From assembly GCA_963706285.1 (NCBI GenBank), contig CAVPLU010000012.1, positions 32,001 through 96,000 of the forward strand: a stretch of DNA of 64,000 bases. The letters run 5' to 3'. The stretch comes from Candidatus Bathyarchaeota archaeon. Lineage in GTDB: Archaea > Thermoproteota > Bathyarchaeia > 40CM-2-53-6. Under the pieces are notes generated by a model. It saw only the letters and a program-made list of their open reading frames with translations, made no database searches and was not told the DNA's origin. How positions within the stretch are numbered: the stretch's first letter is position 1; the number at the start of each line of letters is the position of its first letter. The position numbers and the translations under genes are program-made. Positions 13,287-57,694 of this stretch are shown here, piece after piece.

Positions 13287-13313
13287 CACGAGAACCGATG
13301 TGATTCCTCGCCT

Positions 13314-14328
13314 CTATTCGCGTCTGAAAGAGCGAATGAGGTTTGAGGCAGCAGTGTAGGGATCAATCGCTCGGTTTGCAACCTGCTTTTCATATTCCGT
13401 AAAAGCCTGACTTCTTCGCAGATCGGGAATGAATTCGAGTTCTAGTTCCTGTTCAATAGCAGCCAGAAGTTGAGCCTCGCCGTCCATGAGCCCGCCCCTA
13501 GTGAGATGATATTTGGCAACGTATGCTTGATGCTCACGGATAGCGGCAACTCAACTCGAGAATTCCGCTAGGTTTGAGAGAATCTGTGAGAATCACTTGA
13601 GGCTGCCATGTTCGTTCAGAGCCGTAGGTTTGAAGCATGCCTCTGATGTCGAGAAGCGTTCTGTTTGCGCCTGGCAGGTCCGCCTTGTTTACAACGATTA
13701 TGTCTCCAATCTCCATGAGACCAGCCTTGAATGCTTGTATCTCATCTCCCCATCCAGGAGACAAAACAACCACAACAGTCTGGGCTAGTTTCATTATTTC
13801 CAAGTCTGTCTGACCTGCACCAGCAGTCTCTACTACGATATGATCCCAAGAAGCAGCGTCAAGTATGCTCACAACGTCTGCAGCTGCACGGCAAAGTCCA
13901 CCCACAGCGCCACGCGTTGCCATGCTTCTAATGAACACTCTGGGGTCTTCCGTTAGATCTCTCATCCTTATTCTGTCGCCCAATAGTGCCCCACCTGAGA
14001 AAGTGCTGCTTGGGTCGATGGCAACAACAGCGATTTTCTTCCCCTCGGCACTAACTCGTCTGGCCAAAGCTGCGATGAGGCTGCTCTTTCCGGAGCCTGG
14101 GGGTCCAGTGACTCCGACGACGGACGCCCGGCCAGTCTGTTGGAATAGTTTCCCAATCACGTGTTTTGCCGCGCTTCGATCGTTCTCAACTCTCGATATC
14201 AAACGCGAAAGTGACCTGCGGTTGCCGTGTGTTGTTTCTGCTATGAGTTCGTCCAGATCTTGTTCCCTTGACGAGTCCACTGTGGTCACGATACCTAGAG
14301 AGTTTATCCCATCCTCTGATCGAGACAC
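13314..14328 (-). CDS. meaB: MeaB/ArgK GTPase chaperone of B12 mutases (C-terminal indels)
   Basis: GVTGPPGSGKS, IDPSS.FSGGALLGDRIRM, FIRSMATRG, VVNKAD; C-terminus continues in other frames to DPYTAA..RRE*. Confidence 0.93.
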
Positions 14329-14331
14329 TGT

Positions 14332-15918
14332 CTAGAACGATACTTTTGGTTTGTACTCCCCGAAGGCTTCCATCAGAACGCCACTAATTTCCCCGTTTGT
14401 TGCTCCTGATTTCACGGCATTCAGTATGCTTGGCATCAGATTCGCGGGAGTGGCAGCATTGGATTTCAAAACCTGCAGCGTGTCTTCGACTCTGTGCGTG
14501 TTTCTTGAGCTCTTGTACTTTCGAAGTCTCTCGAGTTGTCTAGCCTCTGCTTCCGGATCGACTCGATGGATCTTGAACCTTAGATCTTCCATTTCAGTGA
14601 ACTTGTTTACGCCTACAACGGTCTTGTCGCCGCCATCTTGACGCAGTTTTGCGTCATACGCGCTGTGCCTGATTTCGTCTTGCATGTACCCGGATTCGAT
14701 CGCTGCTAGGGCACCCCCCATGGCATCGATCTTCTTGAACTCCTGATTCACTCTCTTTTCAATCTCATCGGTCAAGTATTCGACGTAGTATGATCCCCCA
14801 AGAGGATCGACCGTTCTTATGACTCCCGACTCATGTGCCAAGATCTGTTGAGTTCTCAGTGCCACCTTCACGGCCTCTTCTGTAGGCAGGCATAGAGCCT
14901 CGTCGTATGAGTTGGTGTGAAGCGACTGCGTCCCCCCAAGCACCGCGGCAAGAGACTGCAGCGTGACTCTTACGATGTTATTGTGAGGTTGCCTCGCGGT
15001 CAGGCTCTCTCCGCTCGTCTGAGTGTGGAATCTCAACATCCATGATTCTTTTGCCTGAGCATTGAACATCTCTTTCATGATTTTGGCCCAGATGCGTCTG
15101 GCAGCCCGAAACTTCGCAACCTCCTCAAAAAGATCGTTCTGACATGCGAAGAAAAATGATAGACGAGGTGCGAAAGAATCCACGGTCATGCCTCTTTCTA
15201 GGCATGTCTTCACGTACTCGATGGCATTTGCGAATGTGAACGCGAGTTCTTGGATAGCATTTGCTCCGGCTTCGCGGATATGGTACCCGCTGATACTAAT
15301 CGGGTACCATTTCGGAACTTGTTTCGCACAGTAGTCTATGAGATCTGCACAAAGTCTGAGAGAGGCTTTTGGAGGGTAGATGTACGTGTTCCTCGCAACG
15401 TATTCCTTCAGAATGTCGTTCTGAGTGGTTCCCCTCAGAAGCTCAGGCAAAACACCCCTCTCCTGGGCGACTGCCACATACATTGCCAAGAGTGTCGTCG
15501 CTGTCGAGTTAATCGTCATCGAGGTACTTACTTTGTCAAGGGGAATGTCTTCGAGTAGGGTGCGCATGTCATCAATTGTGCTGATCGGAACTCCGACCTT
15601 GCCTACTTCCCCCTGCGCTCGGGTGCTGTCGGCGTCAAGCCCAAGCTGGGTAGGGAGATCGAATGCGACACTCAATCCTGTCTGTCCATGCTGTAGCAGG
15701 TACCTGAATCGCTCATTGGTCTCCTCAGCGCTGCCGAAACCACTGTACTGCCTCATGGTCCAGACTCTTTCCCTATACATAGTGGAGTAGATTCCGCGAG
15801 TGAAGGGATACATTCCCGGCTTGAAATCGGGGCCACCTTCCGAAGGAGGCGGAGTTCCCGAGTAGATTACATCGACCGGGATTCCGGAGTCTGTACGCAT
15901 CTCTTTTGCTAGACCCAT
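14332..15918 (-). CDS. methylmalonyl-CoA mutase large (substrate-binding) subunit
   Basis: [46 protein letters not shown]. Confidence 0.93.
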   Translation of the reverse strand: MGLAKEMRTDSGIPVDVIYSGTPPPSEGGPDFKPGMYPFTRGIYSTMYRERVWTMRQYSGFGSAEETNERFRYLLQHGQTGLSVAFDLPTQLGLDADSTRAQGEVGKVGVPISTIDDMRTLLEDIPLDKVSTSMTINSTATTLLAMYVAVAQERGVLPELLRGTTQNDILKEYVARNTYIYPPKASLRLCADLIDYCAKQVPKWYPISISGYHIREAGANAIQELAFTFANAIEYVKTCLERGMTVDSFAPRLSFFFACQNDLFEEVAKFRAARRIWAKIMKEMFNAQAKESWMLRFHTQTSGESLTARQPHNNIVRVTLQSLAAVLGGTQSLHTNSYDEALCLPTEEAVKVALRTQQILAHESGVIRTVDPLGGSYYVEYLTDEIEKRVNQEFKKIDAMGGALAAIESGYMQDEIRHSAYDAKLRQDGGDKTVVGVNKFTEMEDLRFKIHRVDPEAEARQLERLRKYKSSRNTHRVEDTLQVLKSNAATPANLMPSILNAVKSGATNGEISGVLMEAFGEYKPKVSF

Positions 15919-15947
15919 CCTTCTCCAGCACACTGCCTTGACATGCG

Positions 15948-17784
15948 ATGTCGAGGAGACAGCTAGAAAAAGCGCTTATAGCTTATGCGCTAGACTTGGA
16001 ACTTGGAGGCAAATGCACCGCAATGTCTCCGACCGAGAAAATGAACTTCTGGAAAACCACTCTGAAGCAGCTGAAAGCGAAACGAAAGGCAAGGTCTCCA
16101 ATGCTCTTGAATTCTCAAAGGAGAAAACTGACAGCTGAGGAGCGACGATGGGAGAAGAAGATACTGAGTCCTTGGCTCTCGGATAATCCGGAATCCAAGA
16201 GTGGATTCAGGAATGCTTCTGGCATCGCCCTGAATCGAATCTACACTCCGAAGGAGACTGCCTCTGACGATTACACGAAAGACGTTGGGTTCCCGGGCAA
16301 TTTTCCGTACACTCGAGGAATCTACCCAACAATGTACCGTGGACGAACATGGACTATGCGCCTCTTTTCAGGATTCGGCACGCCCGAAGACACCAACAAG
16401 AGACTACGCTACCTTCTTGACCACGGCGAAACAGGACTGAGCATAGCCTTCGACATGCCCACTCTCTACGGGTATGATGCGGATCATCCACGTGCGCTAG
16501 GAGAAGTGGGAAAATGCGGCGTATCAGTCTCATCGCTCGAGGACATGGAGCACCTCTTTGCCGATATCCCTCTAGGAAAGGTGAGTACCTCGATGACGAT
16601 CAATGCCCCCGCAGCGATCCTCACTTGTATGTACATTGCGGTCGCACAGAAACAAGGGGTTGCACCCTCTCAGATCAAGGGTACAGTTCAGACGGACATT
16701 CTCAAGGAGTACATAGCTCAGAAGGAGTGGAACTACCCCCCTGAGGCGCACCTTCGCATAATCCGAGACATGATCGCATACTCCACAAGAAATTTGCCGC
16801 ATTGGAATTACGTCAGCGTCAGTGGATATCATATCCGTGAAGCTGGATCAAGCGCCCTCCAAGAGCTCGCCTTCACTCTTGCCGACGGATTTGAGTACAT
16901 CAAACTCGGCGTAGAAGCCGGTCTCAAAGTGGACGACTTCGCTCCACGGCTCTCCTTCTTCTTCAATTGTGGAATGGATCTTTTTGAGGAGGTTGCGAAG
17001 TTTCGGGCTGCCAGACGCATCTGGGCTCACGTGATGAAGAACCGATTTCGGGCAAGAGATCCACGGTCTATGCTCCTAAGATTCCATACACAGACTTCTG
17101 GAGCTTCGCTAACGTGGCAGCAACCGTTGAACAACATCGTAAGGACAGCGATTGAGGCTCTTGCCGCGGTGCTTGGGGGGACGCAGTCGCTTCACACCAA
17201 CTCATACGACGAAGCCTGGGCGCTGCCTACCGAGGAAGCCGCAACAATTGCACTTGAGAACTCAACAGATAATAGCAGAAGAGACGGGCGTCGCGGACGT
17301 GATTGATCCGCTTGGCGGATCATACTATGTTGAATACTTAACCGATGAGATGGAGAGGCAATCGTACGAGTACTTCGACAGGATTGAGTCTCTAGGCGGG
17401 GTCCTTCCAGCAATCAAAGACGGGTTCTTCCAGAAGGAAATCGCTGACACCGCATACAAGTACCAGAAAGAGATCGAGCGTCGCGAGCGGGTGGTCGTGG
17501 GAGTGAACAAATACGCGATGAAGGAACAGTCTCCTTTGAACACATTGAAAGTCGACATTGCCGGTCAAGAGAGACAGATTCGCAGACTGAAAGAGTTGAA
17601 GGTTCGCCGCGACAACTCGAGAGTCAAGACAGCATTGGACAACTTGCGCCATACGCTGGAGAATGATAAAGCGAATTGCATCGTACCCATCCTCAACGCC
17701 GTGCAGGAATACGCAACATTGGGCGAGATTACTGAGGTCGGTCGTCAAGTTTTCGGCGATTGGAAGGAGCCAGGCATACTGTAG
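15948..17784 (+). CDS. acyl-CoA mutase large subunit, isobutyryl-CoA mutase-like (1-nt insertion near 17255; true start may be 16023)
   Basis: [24 protein letters not shown], continuing as [12 protein letters not shown]...[10 protein letters not shown] in the next frame. Confidence 0.9.
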
Positions 17785-17873: not shown

Positions 17874-18315
17874 ATGGAGCCTAAGGCAGGCGCAGGCATC
17901 AGGATCTTGGTCGCTAAACCCGGGCTTGAGCGAATCTGAACAGCTAGACGGGCACGACCGAGGAGCACTGGTTCTCTGCAGAGCATTCAGAGACGCCGGT
18001 ATGGAAGTGATCTACGCCGGACTATTGGCGACACCTGAGCAGGTGGCACAGATGGCAGTAGACGAAGACGTCGACGTGGTCGCGATGAGCCTGCTGAACG
18101 GTGCACATCTCACGGCCTTTCCCAAGGTCGCCAACTTGCTACGACAGAAGGGTGCGAGTGACATTGTCCTCGTTGGCGGGGGGATAATCCCCGAAGAGGA
18201 TAAGCCACTATTGGAGAAAGAGAGGATAACGGGCAATTTCGGCCCTGGAACTCCTCTCAGCGAGATCATCAACCACATAGTTGAAAGAGTGAAAAAGGAA
18301 AGACGCCGTGGTTAA
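17874..18315 (+). CDS. acyl-CoA mutase cobalamin-binding small subunit; exons 17874-17928 and 17948-18315
   Basis: Spliced product [41 protein letters not shown]...GGGIIP, 140 aa. Confidence 0.92.
17929..17947 (+). other. 19-nt BHB intron in mRNA
   Basis: CCCG-GGCT-[TG^A]-G..C-AGCT-[AG^A]-CGGG; removal restores the frame and the GAC codon of DGHDRG. Confidence 0.88.
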
Positions 18316-23423: not shown

Positions 23424-25269
23424 TCAGCGATAGGCGGGCCGAGTACTGACATGAAGGGGCAGTGTGAGGGGCCGGAATGGGTATCCAGCAGTTTTCTCCC
23501 TGATCTCGGCGGCGAGTCCTTCTACGGTCAATTTACGTTGGGTACCTGTTTCCCGCACACGAACCGGCAGCTCCGTTAGACCTTTCTCTCTAGCACCAAC
23601 GACTATGATGTAGGGGATCCATAGACATCTCGGCCGTTCGCACTCTCTTCTCTACAGTCTCATCAGAATCATCAACGTCAGCCCTAACTCTCGCGTCGCT
23701 CAGTTTTCTTGCGAGCTCATCGGCATATGGTAGAGAATCTCGCTTTACAGGAAGAATCCTCACCTGACTCGGTGCCAGCCAAAGTGGGAGCTGCGGCTTC
23801 TTTCCTTGCCTTTCCATCCTTGCACAAGTGTCCAATATCGTGAATATGTAACGCTCAACGGTCCCGATTAGTGCCGTATGAATTATCGGCGGATACTGCT
23901 TTGTGCTATTCTGGTCGACGTATGAAATGTCAAATCTCTTGGCATTTCCCATATCAATCTGGAACGTAGCTATTTCTCTGGGTCGGTCGAGTTCGTCGAC
24001 AATGTGATACTCAACATTGAGCACCCAGTAATAGATCCCCTCAGGGACAAAATTGAGGAGGATAGGCTTCCTTTCAAGCTTCGCCAGTTCAATGAAGTAG
24101 GACTTGTTACCTTCCAAGAAGCTCCTGGTTGTATTGTAGACTGAGACGTAGTCCCTTCCAAGTTTCGCTACCTCTTCATAGATTACCTTGTGTGCACCTA
24201 TGGACACGTCCTTCGAGTTCTCCAGATCGCGGCAATAGATGTGAAGGTCGGGCATGTGCAGTTTTCTTACCCTGAAGCATAGAAGCAACTCCCCGCTCTG
24301 CTCAAGACGATAGCTGTCTGCAACTTCGAAAGTGCCGAAAGGTATATTCCGGTAGCTGATCGTCCAATCCTTCACCATTGCGAATTGTTGGTGACATGCA
24401 GCATAACGCATGACGAAGCTCTTTTCGTCCAAATCAATCTTGTATAGCCTTGCCCCGAAAAGGTCGGCGTGTTCCTTTACGGGTTTCACTGAAAGATCGA
24501 AAAGGTTGGTCCCGCGTACCTGGAGCACTGGGATGCCGACGTGGTTGGCGATAGCCCAAGAATAGTCGGCGATTAGGTCGAATATTAGCGTGGCTTCGGG
24601 ACCGTATCTCATATGGCCAACGTCTGAGTACGGCTCCCACTCGATCCCGAATTTCCTGCAGTACTCCAGGAAACGGGGTTCGCCACCGCCTGCGAGTCCC
24701 TTCTTGAGAGCTTCTTTCTCGACGAGGCTTCTGAACTCTTCTTCTCCTTTAGAGTACCGATAATCTCCAGGACTGAATAGATGGCCTTCAAGATCCATTA
24801 TCATGTATTCCGTCGGAACGGGCGCACGTTCCCCAGTCTTCTTCTCAGCGGTTATCGTTCGCGAAAGCTCTGCCAGAGGATGCCCCAGACAATGCAGTCG
24901 GAAGCTCTTGTAATACCCGAACGGGCTTCTCTGAACTGCGAAGCCTTGATCATGGAGAAGGGCTTCCATCGTGGCGAGCACTTTGATTGCTGGATCTCTT
25001 GACGCTAGGCTGCTCGAAAGGTGTGCGTACGGGTACAGCATTACATTTCTAGTTCTCACTCGATCCGCGACTTCTTTGATCGCCTCCGATCCGTTCGCGG
25101 CGATCTTTCCTGGATCCTTTTCGTCATCTTTTTCGATTGTACAGAATGCAACTAGGACATTCTCCATTTGACCATGGGAACGTGAATCCTCGAACTCTTC
25201 TGGTTCATTAACTGCTTTCTCGCGCACCTGATACTCGAAGGATTGGGAGTGGATTAGCAGAACTCGCAA
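23424..25269 (-). CDS. thrS: threonyl-tRNA synthetase (archaeal type; indel near C-terminus)
   Basis: MRVLLIHS editing domain, YPYAHLS, MRYAACHQQF, LPLWLAPSQVR; continues WIPYIIVVG..RPAYR*. Confidence 0.95.
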
Positions 25270-42232: not shown

Positions 42233-42333
42233 GGGCGGGTATAGAAAGGGCAGTTTCTCCCGATGCCTAGCCAGGATAGGGCACAGGCCTCCGGAGCCTG
42301 GAGTCGCGGGTTCGAATCCTGCCCCGCCCGCCA
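42233..42333 (+). tRNA. tRNA-Arg(CCG) with 23-nt intron at position 9/10 (42242-42264); CCA encoded
   Basis: Spliced GGGCGGG-TA-GCCT..GGGC-A-CAGGC-CTCCGGA-GCCTG-GAGTC-GCGGG-TTCGAAT-CCTGC-CCCGCCC-G-CCA. Confidence 0.93.
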
Positions 42334-49726: not shown

Positions 49727-49828
49727 TGGAGCCGGGGGTGGGAGTCGAACCCACATTCTGCGGCTCTGCAGGCCACCGCCTGAACCGTTCGGCCTTCGGT
49801 GGTCACATCAGTTGTGACCAACCCCGGC
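49727..49828 (-). tRNA. tRNA-Cys(GCA) with 26-nt intron at position 8/9 (49795-49820); CCA encoded
   Basis: Spliced GCCGGGG-TG-GCCG..AGGC-G-GTGGC-CTGCAGA-GCCGC-AGAAT-GTGGG-TTCGACT-CCCAC-CCCCGGC-T-CCA. Confidence 0.92.
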
Positions 49829-56389: not shown

Positions 56390-57569
56390 TTAGTATCCCA
56401 GTATTCTCATCAGGATATCTACTCCAATAGGAATCTTGCACGTGACGACCTTCCTGATTCCTGATGTTTGCAGAATTCCCATGGTGCGATCGAAGATCCT
56501 GTCGTGACGCATGAAGATATCCGCGAATCTTCTCATTCGTGCTGAATTCGCAAGTTGGCGGCCAAAGACGCTCTTCCATCTGGTCTCGTAGCGAGATAGC
56601 GGTGTGTCTTTCTTCACATGGAGAGCTGCAATTTCGCCTGCAATTCGCCCTGACACCATAGCGGTGGGTATTCCTCCGCCATTCGTAGCCATCACCATGC
56701 CGGCTGCATCTCCGACCAGAAGAAGCCTGTCGGAGTAGGTCTTGGATACGGCCCCGTCAATTGGCAGAGGATCCGCGATCATTGTCAAGGATGTTGCCTG
56801 AATGTGACTTGTCGGTTGTGAGAGAACACTTGTGAACAAAATAGTCAAGCCGATCCTTCGCTCGTCCGGACTTGAACGTGGTTCGAATTCCTATTCCTAT
56901 GTTTGCGGTTGTGGAGCTCTTCGGAATTATCCACCCGTATCCGCCGGGCGCGATGGCGGTGCTCATGTACATCTCGGTAACATCAGGTTCTACGGTCAGA
57001 TTGTCCATGACATACTGATAGTTTACAGCGACATTCTCCGGACGCATATAGCGATCACAAACGAGTCCTCCTGAAGTGGCCACTTCAGATGGAAAACCAT
57101 CAGCGGCAATTACCACCTCTGCGTCTAGACACTCCGGTTCGGTCGTTCCAACTTCGATCTTGCGTTGATCTTCTGAGACTCGAACTCGACGCCCGAGCCT
57201 GATTTCCACGCCAAGCCTATTGGCTTCCCTTGCCATCTTCTGCTCTAGAAGGATTCGATCAAGCACGTATGCTTTGAACGGGAACTCCCAACATTTCCCA
57301 CTCGGAGAGAACATACGAAGCGTTTCACAGGTGTTAGCTATGACATCGGGGGGCATTTCGAAAAGGTGTTCGAAATCCTCGGCTCCCGGTAGAAGGTCCA
57401 GCATCTCCTCTTTGCATGGGAAATACTCTCCACACTTTACGGGCATGCCGATTGTTGTCTTCTTATCGAGTAGTAGGACCGATGCTCCGCCTTCCGCTGC
57501 AGCGATTGCGGCCTGCAGACCAGCTGGGCCGGCTCCTACGACGACTATTTCGAAACGCTGTGAGTCCAC
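56390..57569 (-). CDS. geranylgeranyl reductase family flavoprotein (indel near 56790)
   Basis: VVGAGPAG, PVKCGE, PGGYGWIIPK, LVGDAAG...TNGGGI. Confidence 0.9.
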
Positions 57570-57694
57570 CAATTGCCATTCAAGCCGTGATATGTAGTCG
57601 CGGCTCGAGCAGTAGGGGAGTTCATTTTTAAACACTCTTCCGGATTAGAATTGGTCAATTCATAAGGGCATGATATATAAATCAGGATAAGACT

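Follow-up and report, generated by a model that had tools for sequence, protein, structure and literature searches.

The window, by which the entire 64,000-nucleotide stretch analysed here is meant, comes from a soil archaeon of the Bathyarchaeia and contains a cluster of acyl-CoA mutase genes (Table 1). The gene for the small, B12-binding subunit is preceded on the same strand by a gene for the large subunit, and the two probably belong to one operon. The opposite strand carries an intact, divergent large-subunit paralogue and a gene for a MeaB-type mutase-associated GTPase, the 3' part of which lies in another frame after ~13551. The small-subunit gene is itself interrupted, by an insert of 19 nt.

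Table 1. Features of the mutase cluster and related sites (positions in the window unless a contig is named)
Feature	Position	Strand	Remarks
MeaB-type mutase-associated GTPase	13300-14328	-	PF03308 253.8 bits, positions 1-227 of 273
Second large-subunit paralogue, intact, divergent	14332-15933	-	PF01642 726 bits (1-512); TIGR00641 744 bits
Large-subunit acyl-CoA mutase gene, upstream	15948-17784	+	PF01642 positions 3-349 and 345-512, in two frames
Small-subunit acyl-CoA mutase gene	17874-18315	+	ATG at 17874; TAA stop at 18313-18315
Exon 1 (predicted)	17874-17928	+	55 nt; 18 codons (M...RILVAKPGL) and G, base 1 of the Asp codon
Putative BHB mini-intron	17929-17947	+	19 nt; in-frame TGA at 17937-17939
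Exon 2 (predicted)	17948-18315	+	TAA stop included; bases 2 and 3 of the Asp codon, followed by GHDRG...; B12-binding domain
Bulge-helix-bulge (BHB) fold	17919-17952	+	from minimum-energy folds
Outer helix	17919-22 / 17949-52	+	CCCG / CGGG; 4 bp
Central helix	17923-26 / 17942-45	+	GGCU / AGCU; 4 bp, one G-U pair
Bulges	17927-29 (5'); 17946-48 (3')	+	UGA; AGA; 3 nt each
Inner helix, weak	G17930-C17941	+	part of the BHB fold
ThrRS gene, frame break	~23621-23629	-	1 nt; presumed assembly error
Geranylgeranyl reductase (GGR) gene, frame break	56797-56835	-	1 nt; ORF pair 56390-56845 / 56757-57632
cbf5, BHB-type insert	C13:129514-129569	-	contig of the same genome, outside the window; canonical spacing

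Exon 1 reads ...GTC GCT AAA CCC GGG CTT up to 17927 and is followed by G17928; past the insert, the sequence continues AC GGG CAC GAC CGA GGA, in a frame that differs from that of exon 1. The insert separates the first from the second base of the Asp codon in DxHxxG, the cobalamin-binding motif, which appears in this gene only once the insert is removed. The first-pass annotation had reported 19 extra nucleotides with an in-frame TGA, followed by DGHDRG in another frame, and had proposed that excision of 17929-17947 restores the Asp codon and a normal 140-aa protein. The sequence bears out both points: the 55 nt of exon 1 and the 365 nt of the coding part of exon 2 (17948-18312) add up to 420 nt, i.e. 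140 codons. Positions 17928 and 17947 are both G, which makes 17928-17946 an equally good choice for the excised 19 nt.

Exon 2 on its own is recognized as a B12-binding domain, with 138.4 bits to TIGR00640 (cut-off 57.45) and 76.2 bits to PF02310 (cut-off 32.1). From its first residue, it aligns to residue 29 of 2yxb_A and residue 27 of 4r3u_C, and the DGHDRG of both these proteins is aligned with the motif of the small subunit. The unspliced message yields a peptide of ~21 residues only. One small-subunit homologue was detected in the genome; the earlier claim that both mutases depend on splicing of the only small-subunit gene holds as far as the single copy goes, within a genome that is 89% complete.

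The junctions of the insert fold into a BHB. The unconstrained minimum-energy fold contains all eight pairs of the outer and central helices as well as the 3-nt 3' bulge. It also pairs G17928 with C17941, and because of this pair, the 5' bulge and the inner helix are weak in this genome, the clean 3-nt 5' bulge not being shown and the inner helix comprising at most 1-2 bp. As a structure, the fold is unremarkable in its stability, with z = -0.70 over 81 nt and 47 of 200 shuffled sequences folding as well. The 8-bp BHB frame with such spacing and no more than one G-U pair occurs at 328 of the 4,266,700 positions of the genome (7.7e-5), and in the window, this rare register coincides with the insert boundaries that are defined by insert-free orthologues. 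Thus, the rarity resides in the register, not in the stability. The outer helix, the 4-bp central helix and the bulges at 17927-29 and 17946-48 named by the first-pass annotation are all present; of its distal helix (17905-13/17955-63), the 9 bp exist in the window but are not conserved (73% of the cells paired across 21 sequences). The BHB lies only ~45 nt after the start codon, so that translating ribosomes could compete with folding.

The small subunit was sought in 40 relatives and then in all 59 genomes of the family, that of the window included, and the site was read in the fetched loci. The insert is present at the identical codon phase in 21 of the 23 gene-bearing genomes of two Bathyarchaeia genera, namely, all eight genomes with a small-subunit gene in the genus of the window (g1; window included) and 13 of 15 such genomes in g4. 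It is absent from two g4 genomes, from the six g2 genomes that were read (of 19), from two g3 genomes and one g5 genome, from four orthologous small-subunit loci in other families and perhaps from a fifth (L021 of G037), and from 76 of 80 loci in a public collection, mostly Nitrososphaeria, with the four positives coming from the same Bathyarchaeia genera. The insert-free orthologues that were read join exactly at the insert point. In each of the 20 other insert-bearing genomes, there is a single small-subunit match, the exon-2 matches of the insert-bearing genomes contain no stops, and exon 1 is open and conserved, in a frame other than that of exon 2, in all 21 insert-bearing orthologues. 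The presence/absence check on related genomes that had been proposed at the outset thus came out in favor of an intron, with the insert conserved in 21 genomes, the BHB pairing kept and no second small-subunit copy found.

The inserts differ in length, with 17 nt in eight genomes, 19 in seven, 16 in three, 18 in two and 23 in one; modulo 3, the length is 0 in two genomes, 1 in 10 and 2 in nine. Both 18-nt inserts, which are in frame, contain an in-frame stop, and the unspliced frame ends 1-3 codons past the 5' site in 21/21 cases. At the position of the Asp, the codon in the DNA is AAC or TAC in 15 of the 21 genomes, the G of GAC being supplied by exon 1. Only excision at the BHB register restores the Asp codon; it produces an in-frame join in all 21, identical to the insert-free orthologues. 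By these sequence comparisons, the inserts appear to behave like introns, unlike recoding sites or debris.

The pairing itself is nearly invariant. In the alignment of the 21 insert-bearing sequences (A1), the outer helix is paired in 98.8% of the cells and the central helix in 100%, and free folding recovers 7-8 of the eight expected pairs along with the 3-nt 3' bulge in every sequence. The inner helix is paired in 72% of the cells overall. In g4, this helix comprises 2-5 bp, whereas the window and most g1 genomes have only ~1 bp, which makes the motif in the window a relaxed BHB. The proposal to look for covariation of the BHB was answered in part: pairing is kept, but the outer and central helices show no double compensatory changes among the 21 sequences, all the variation being one-sided and wobble-compatible (G-C to G-U, U-A to U-G), and the shuffled columns are not exceeded. 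Specifically, 244 of 500 column shuffles reach or pass the covariation score, and the fraction of paired cells, 83.5%, compares with a shuffled mean of 83.2% and is reached by 137 of 500 shuffles. The lack of formal covariation is expected because half of each helix is coding sequence.

The constraint shows up in the choice of synonymous codons, which is the more suitable test here. The Gly before the Leu is GGG in 21/21 insert-bearing genes vs 2/10 insert-free genes of the same family, the Gly after the Asp is GGG in 20/21 vs 1/10, and the Pro is CCC in 19/21 (the other two being CCT, a wobble) vs 0/10. These helix-building synonymous sites are fixed only where the insert is present; the counts come from one clade and are non-independent. 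The third base of the Leu codon, which sits in the bulge, varies freely among A, T and C: the codon before the 5' splice site is CTA (8), CTT (7) or CTC (6) in the 21 insert-bearing genes, and never CTG, a codon that does appear in four of the 10 insert-free genes from this family. Selection may disfavor G at the first position of the bulge.

Several other genes of this genome contain frame breaks of a single nucleotide. In the large-subunit gene, there is one extra base at 17253-17256, where 14 of 14 relatives read in frame. The break reads GCA CTT G AGA, and skipping one base gives ...IAL|RTQQII; at the same site, the closest relative has GCA TTG AGA and the others have GCA CTG AGA. This break, which the first-pass annotation had missed, probably arose in consensus calling or assembly. 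The single-base breaks of the large subunit, MeaB, ThrRS, GGR and RtcB alike presumably stem from assembly errors, given that essential genes are among those affected. Overlapping same-strand ORF pairs were considered as a sign of pervasive frameshifts and rejected: among the family-matched pairs, only the large subunit is split, the others being adjacent genes with over-extended starts; several overlapping ORF pieces have no family match at E 1e-5, and one such pair is the broken GGR gene. Another candidate, a shared +1 frameshift signal in the form of TTGAG at the 5' site of the small subunit, the large-subunit break and the MeaB break, was dropped, given that the large-subunit break is absent in 14/14 relatives and TTGAG is missing from the breaks in ThrRS and RtcB. 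In one relative (locus L017 of genome G023), the large-subunit match falls into two frames, split at query residue 54 of a 120-residue probe; measured from the Asp codon of the small subunit, this gene region lies ~830-990 nt upstream.

Taken as a whole, the 19 nt at 17929-17947 very likely represent an archaeal BHB intron within the coding sequence of the small-subunit mRNA, and the small-subunit message would almost certainly need splicing before the protein can be made. An improbable alternative is that the insert is retained and a shorter protein, starting MSESEQLDGHDRG and devoid of the first beta-strand, is translated in the exon-2 frame from the internal TTG at 17926. A 129-aa ORF from this TTG does exist, and GAC is found in the exon-2 frame in the window and five other g1 genomes, but in the 15 genomes with AAC or TAC, such a protein would lose the Asp of DxHxxG. 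Moreover, all 21 genomes preserve an open and conserved exon 1 (RILVAKPGL) upstream of this ORF in a different frame, and the helix-forming synonymous sites of this exon are constrained, which would be needless for a discarded upstream piece.

It is quite improbable that the small-subunit gene is a pseudogene with a dead insertion, in a lineage that is losing the mutase pathway. It is true that the cluster has three interrupted genes in this assembly, those for MeaB, the large subunit and the small subunit. The 1-nt breaks, however, are private to this assembly where checked, and they occur also in the essential ThrRS and RtcB genes, which fits assembly error over decay. Both exons of the small subunit are otherwise intact in 21 species of two genera, the sites that form the RNA structure are under constraint, and no second small-subunit copy was found in the genomes searched.

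Translational recoding is very improbable, whether by a +1 shift of frame at CUU-G or by hopping of the ribosome from CUU onto the CUA that precedes GAC. In the window, a +1 shift would be needed, CUU, a classical slippery codon, is at the shift site, a CUA codon at 17944-46 precedes GAC, and the adjoining large-subunit gene likewise needs a +1 shift at CTTG. The orthologous inserts, however, would require shifts of 0, +1 and +2, those in frame carry stops, and most of the orthologues have neither a Leu codon before the landing site nor GAC there. The pattern is not that of a programmed frameshift, with the insert length modulo 3 varying and the Leu codon being CTA, CTT or CTC, and the absence of the large-subunit shift in 14/14 relatives leaves no conserved signal. 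Finally, several 1-nt frameshifts in the assembly might suggest that the 19 nt are an assembly or sequencing artefact too, but this is refuted by 20 other assemblies, from different species, with diverged inserts at the same place.

The history of the putative intron was traced on a tree of 24 rows and 548 columns, built from part of the large subunit and exon 2 of the small subunit; G023 (broken piece), G064 (short contig) and g2, g3 and g5 (large subunit not upstream) were left out. The genera g1 and g4 form one clade (support 100/99), and the two insert-free g4 genomes are a sister pair (100/99) within the g4 clade (97/99). Two changes explain the distribution of the insert on this tree. 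Most simply, the intron would have been gained once in the ancestor of the two genera and lost once. The insert counts given above are not independent because the insert-bearing genomes form one clade. Neither a homing-endonuclease gene beside the insert (among the window ORFs and family matches) nor any sign of a regulatory role for the intron was seen in this analysis. By default, the intron is best regarded as a neutral or mildly costly passenger that is kept because precise loss is rare.

Two side observations concern the insert-free relatives. First, a large-subunit gene lies upstream of the small-subunit gene in g1, g4 and four other families, and none is found within 1.5 kb upstream in g2, g3 and g5 (loci L008, L010, L013-L016, L018 and L019); gene order and intron presence change together. 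Second, a g3 locus at a contig end (L022, G011:C103) reads CTT AAC GGG CAC, i.e. KPGL-N-GHDRG, without an insert; it has Asn instead of the motif Asp and carries the GGG codon typical of insert-bearing genes. Such a sequence might have been left behind when an intron was deleted imprecisely; alternatively, it might be an error.

The archaeal splicing endonuclease cuts after the second nucleotide of each bulge of a BHB. In the proposed mechanism, the folded pre-mRNA would have the Pro-Gly codons (CCC G) base-paired to C GGG, which spans the end of the Asp codon and the Gly codon after it, and GGCU base-paired to the AGCU found at the insert's 3' end, with two 3-nt bulges left over. The endonuclease, apparently a two-subunit alpha-beta enzyme, would cut after base 2 of each bulge, and RtcB would join the exons. 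The spliced junction would read ...GGGCTTG|ACGGGCAC, and the joined message, CTT GAC GGG, would restore the Asp of DxHxxG and encode the 140-aa protein. Genes for both enzymes are present in the genome, and we infer that cutting and joining take place in the cell and are carried out by the products of these genes.

There are two EndA paralogues, of 200 and 181 aa (C12:148962-149561 and C6:75176-75718), both with PF01974 matches above the cut-off. One is clearly of the catalytic type (TIGR00324 88.9 bits, cut-off 59.6). In alignments with the two-repeat enzymes, it falls on the C-terminal repeat, and the second paralogue, which has weak matches to beta-subunit models as well, falls on the N-terminal repeat. 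The presence of one catalytic-type and one N-terminal-repeat or beta-like paralogue points to an (alpha-beta)2 enzyme. In the accessible portions of PMC6379350 and PMC2738675, (alpha-beta)2 and epsilon2 endonucleases are described as cutting relaxed motifs, and hetero-oligomeric endonucleases as cleaving relaxed motifs outside tRNA. RtcB is encoded in the same genome, with PF01139 matches in two adjoining frames; these share 23 nt (C4:106303-106325, on another contig, outside the window). The RtcB break has the appearance of one added base and not of a BHB insert.

The tRNA set of this genome is intron-rich, as indicated by the full-length Rfam tRNA matches, 13 of 13 of which span 88-129 nt vs the 71 positions of the model, and by the finding of only three tRNAs in 2.1 Mb when ARAGORN is run without intron search. 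With intron search, ARAGORN makes 25 predictions with odd intron positions, and Rfam was preferred. Within the window, where ARAGORN finds none, two partial tRNA matches at 42265-42322 (+) and 49738-49794 (-) cover model positions 9/10-63, with anticodons CCG and GCA. Both have the D, anticodon and T arms and no recognized acceptor stem; introns may interrupt them close to this stem, at non-canonical positions.

Among eight public sequencing runs, two shared any words with the stretch of the window (a share of 0.06 each). Four runs aligned at 85% likeness contained no spliced join and no cover of 17900-17960 by this organism, and are uninformative; in what is probably a DNA run, one contig could be aligned, starting at 17943 and with seven differences.

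The mutase insert has a counterpart in the same genome. The cbf5 gene contains a 20-nt insert between CTA G and AT CCC, in the catalytic Asp codon of GGTLDP, with seven bases between the flanking helices on each side, i.e. the canonical 4+3 spacing. cbf5 was found in 29 of the 31 genomes of the order that were searched, the present one included, and by profile matches, it is interrupted at the same profile position in 29/29, being split near 66-78 in 26 genomes and containing one in-frame stop in three. A BHB intron in the cbf5 pre-mRNA of Crenarchaeota was reportedly described by Watanabe in 2002. The site of the insert is that of the known crenarchaeal cbf5 intron, according to the accessible part of PMC2738675; the same text agrees with the remark of the first-pass annotation that the crenarchaeal intron also interrupts an essential Asp codon.

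A more far-reaching possibility is that tRNA-type splicing is a routine part of mRNA maturation in this lineage, that several more 'frameshifted' genes are BHB-split and that the intron might gate the synthesis of active mutase. This reading, which draws on the intron-rich tRNAs, the interrupted cbf5 and the single mutase copy that requires splicing, is tentative and, in our view, rather doubtful. If it is true, an intron in the cofactor-binding motif, ~45 nt past the start, might let splicing capacity gate the mutase. A genome-wide scan for further split genes by the BHB alone was abandoned as hopelessly unspecific: the 8-bp BHB frame combined with an ORF-fusion test gives 5,092 hits, and stricter filters leave 133-2,476 loci. 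At an estimated ~0.6 chance hits per gene junction, no list of further BHB-split genes can be drawn up without homology data.

In the searchable full-text literature, with most subscription journals outside it, no BHB intron in a mutase gene is described; one paper contains both 'bulge-helix-bulge' and 'methylmalonyl-CoA mutase' but mentions them apart. Besides cbf5, no coding-region BHB intron was found in that literature, and one 5'-UTR case is known. Papers on cbf5 introns in Bathyarchaeia did not come up either, in searches directed at other questions. In the text available from a 2020 paper (PMC7714728), cbf5 is called the only additional example, and in that available from PMC2738675, coding-region BHB introns other than cbf5 are only predicted. 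Going by the sequence comparisons, what appears to be new here is the host gene and the lineage for a coding-region BHB intron, and the comparative evidence is unusually clean.

A further host gene, unrelated to cbf5 and interrupted in 21 species, would mean that endonuclease-dependent mRNA splicing is no peculiarity of cbf5. It would also provide a natural setting for testing how exon codons meet the demands of protein and RNA fold at once. On the practical side, gene callers will report the small subunit as a frameshifted gene or a truncated 129-aa protein, and the mutase step could be wrongly recorded as absent when pathways are reconstructed for these Bathyarchaeia.

The closest known system is crenarchaeal cbf5. 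As far as the accessible text of PMC2738675 goes, the two have much in common: in both cases, a short tRNA-type intron sits in coding sequence, between bases 1 and 2 of an essential Asp codon after a Leu codon, the motif is often relaxed, the host endonuclease is hetero-oligomeric (apparently so in the genome of the window), and the distribution is patchy, with gain and loss. They differ in that cbf5 encodes an RNA-modification enzyme, a pseudouridine synthase, whereas the mutase gene encodes a metabolic B12-binding subunit; in lineage, the mutase intron being found in two Bathyarchaeia genera; and in that splicing of cbf5 has been demonstrated experimentally (according to what is accessible of Yokobori 2009, PMC2738675), whereas that of the mutase message is deduced from sequence. 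The intron of HVO_1309 in Haloferax volcanii (Schwarz 2020, PMC7714728) is likewise an mRNA substrate of the archaeal splicing endonuclease but, by the accessible part of that paper, it lies in the untranslated 5' leader, where no codon is interrupted, and its splicing is demonstrated both in vivo and in vitro. Archaeal pre-tRNA introns, which have canonical (hBHBh') or relaxed (hBH, HBh') motifs, share with the mutase insert the 3-4-3 geometry and the cut positions, and the same enzymes are expected to act on them, going by the available text of PMC6379350; the 16-23 nt of the mutase inserts fall inside the tRNA intron range of 11-175 nt given in the accessible part of PMC2738675. The difference is that the host RNA of the mutase insert is an mRNA, with the exon halves of the helix built from codons, so that synonymous sites would carry structural constraint.
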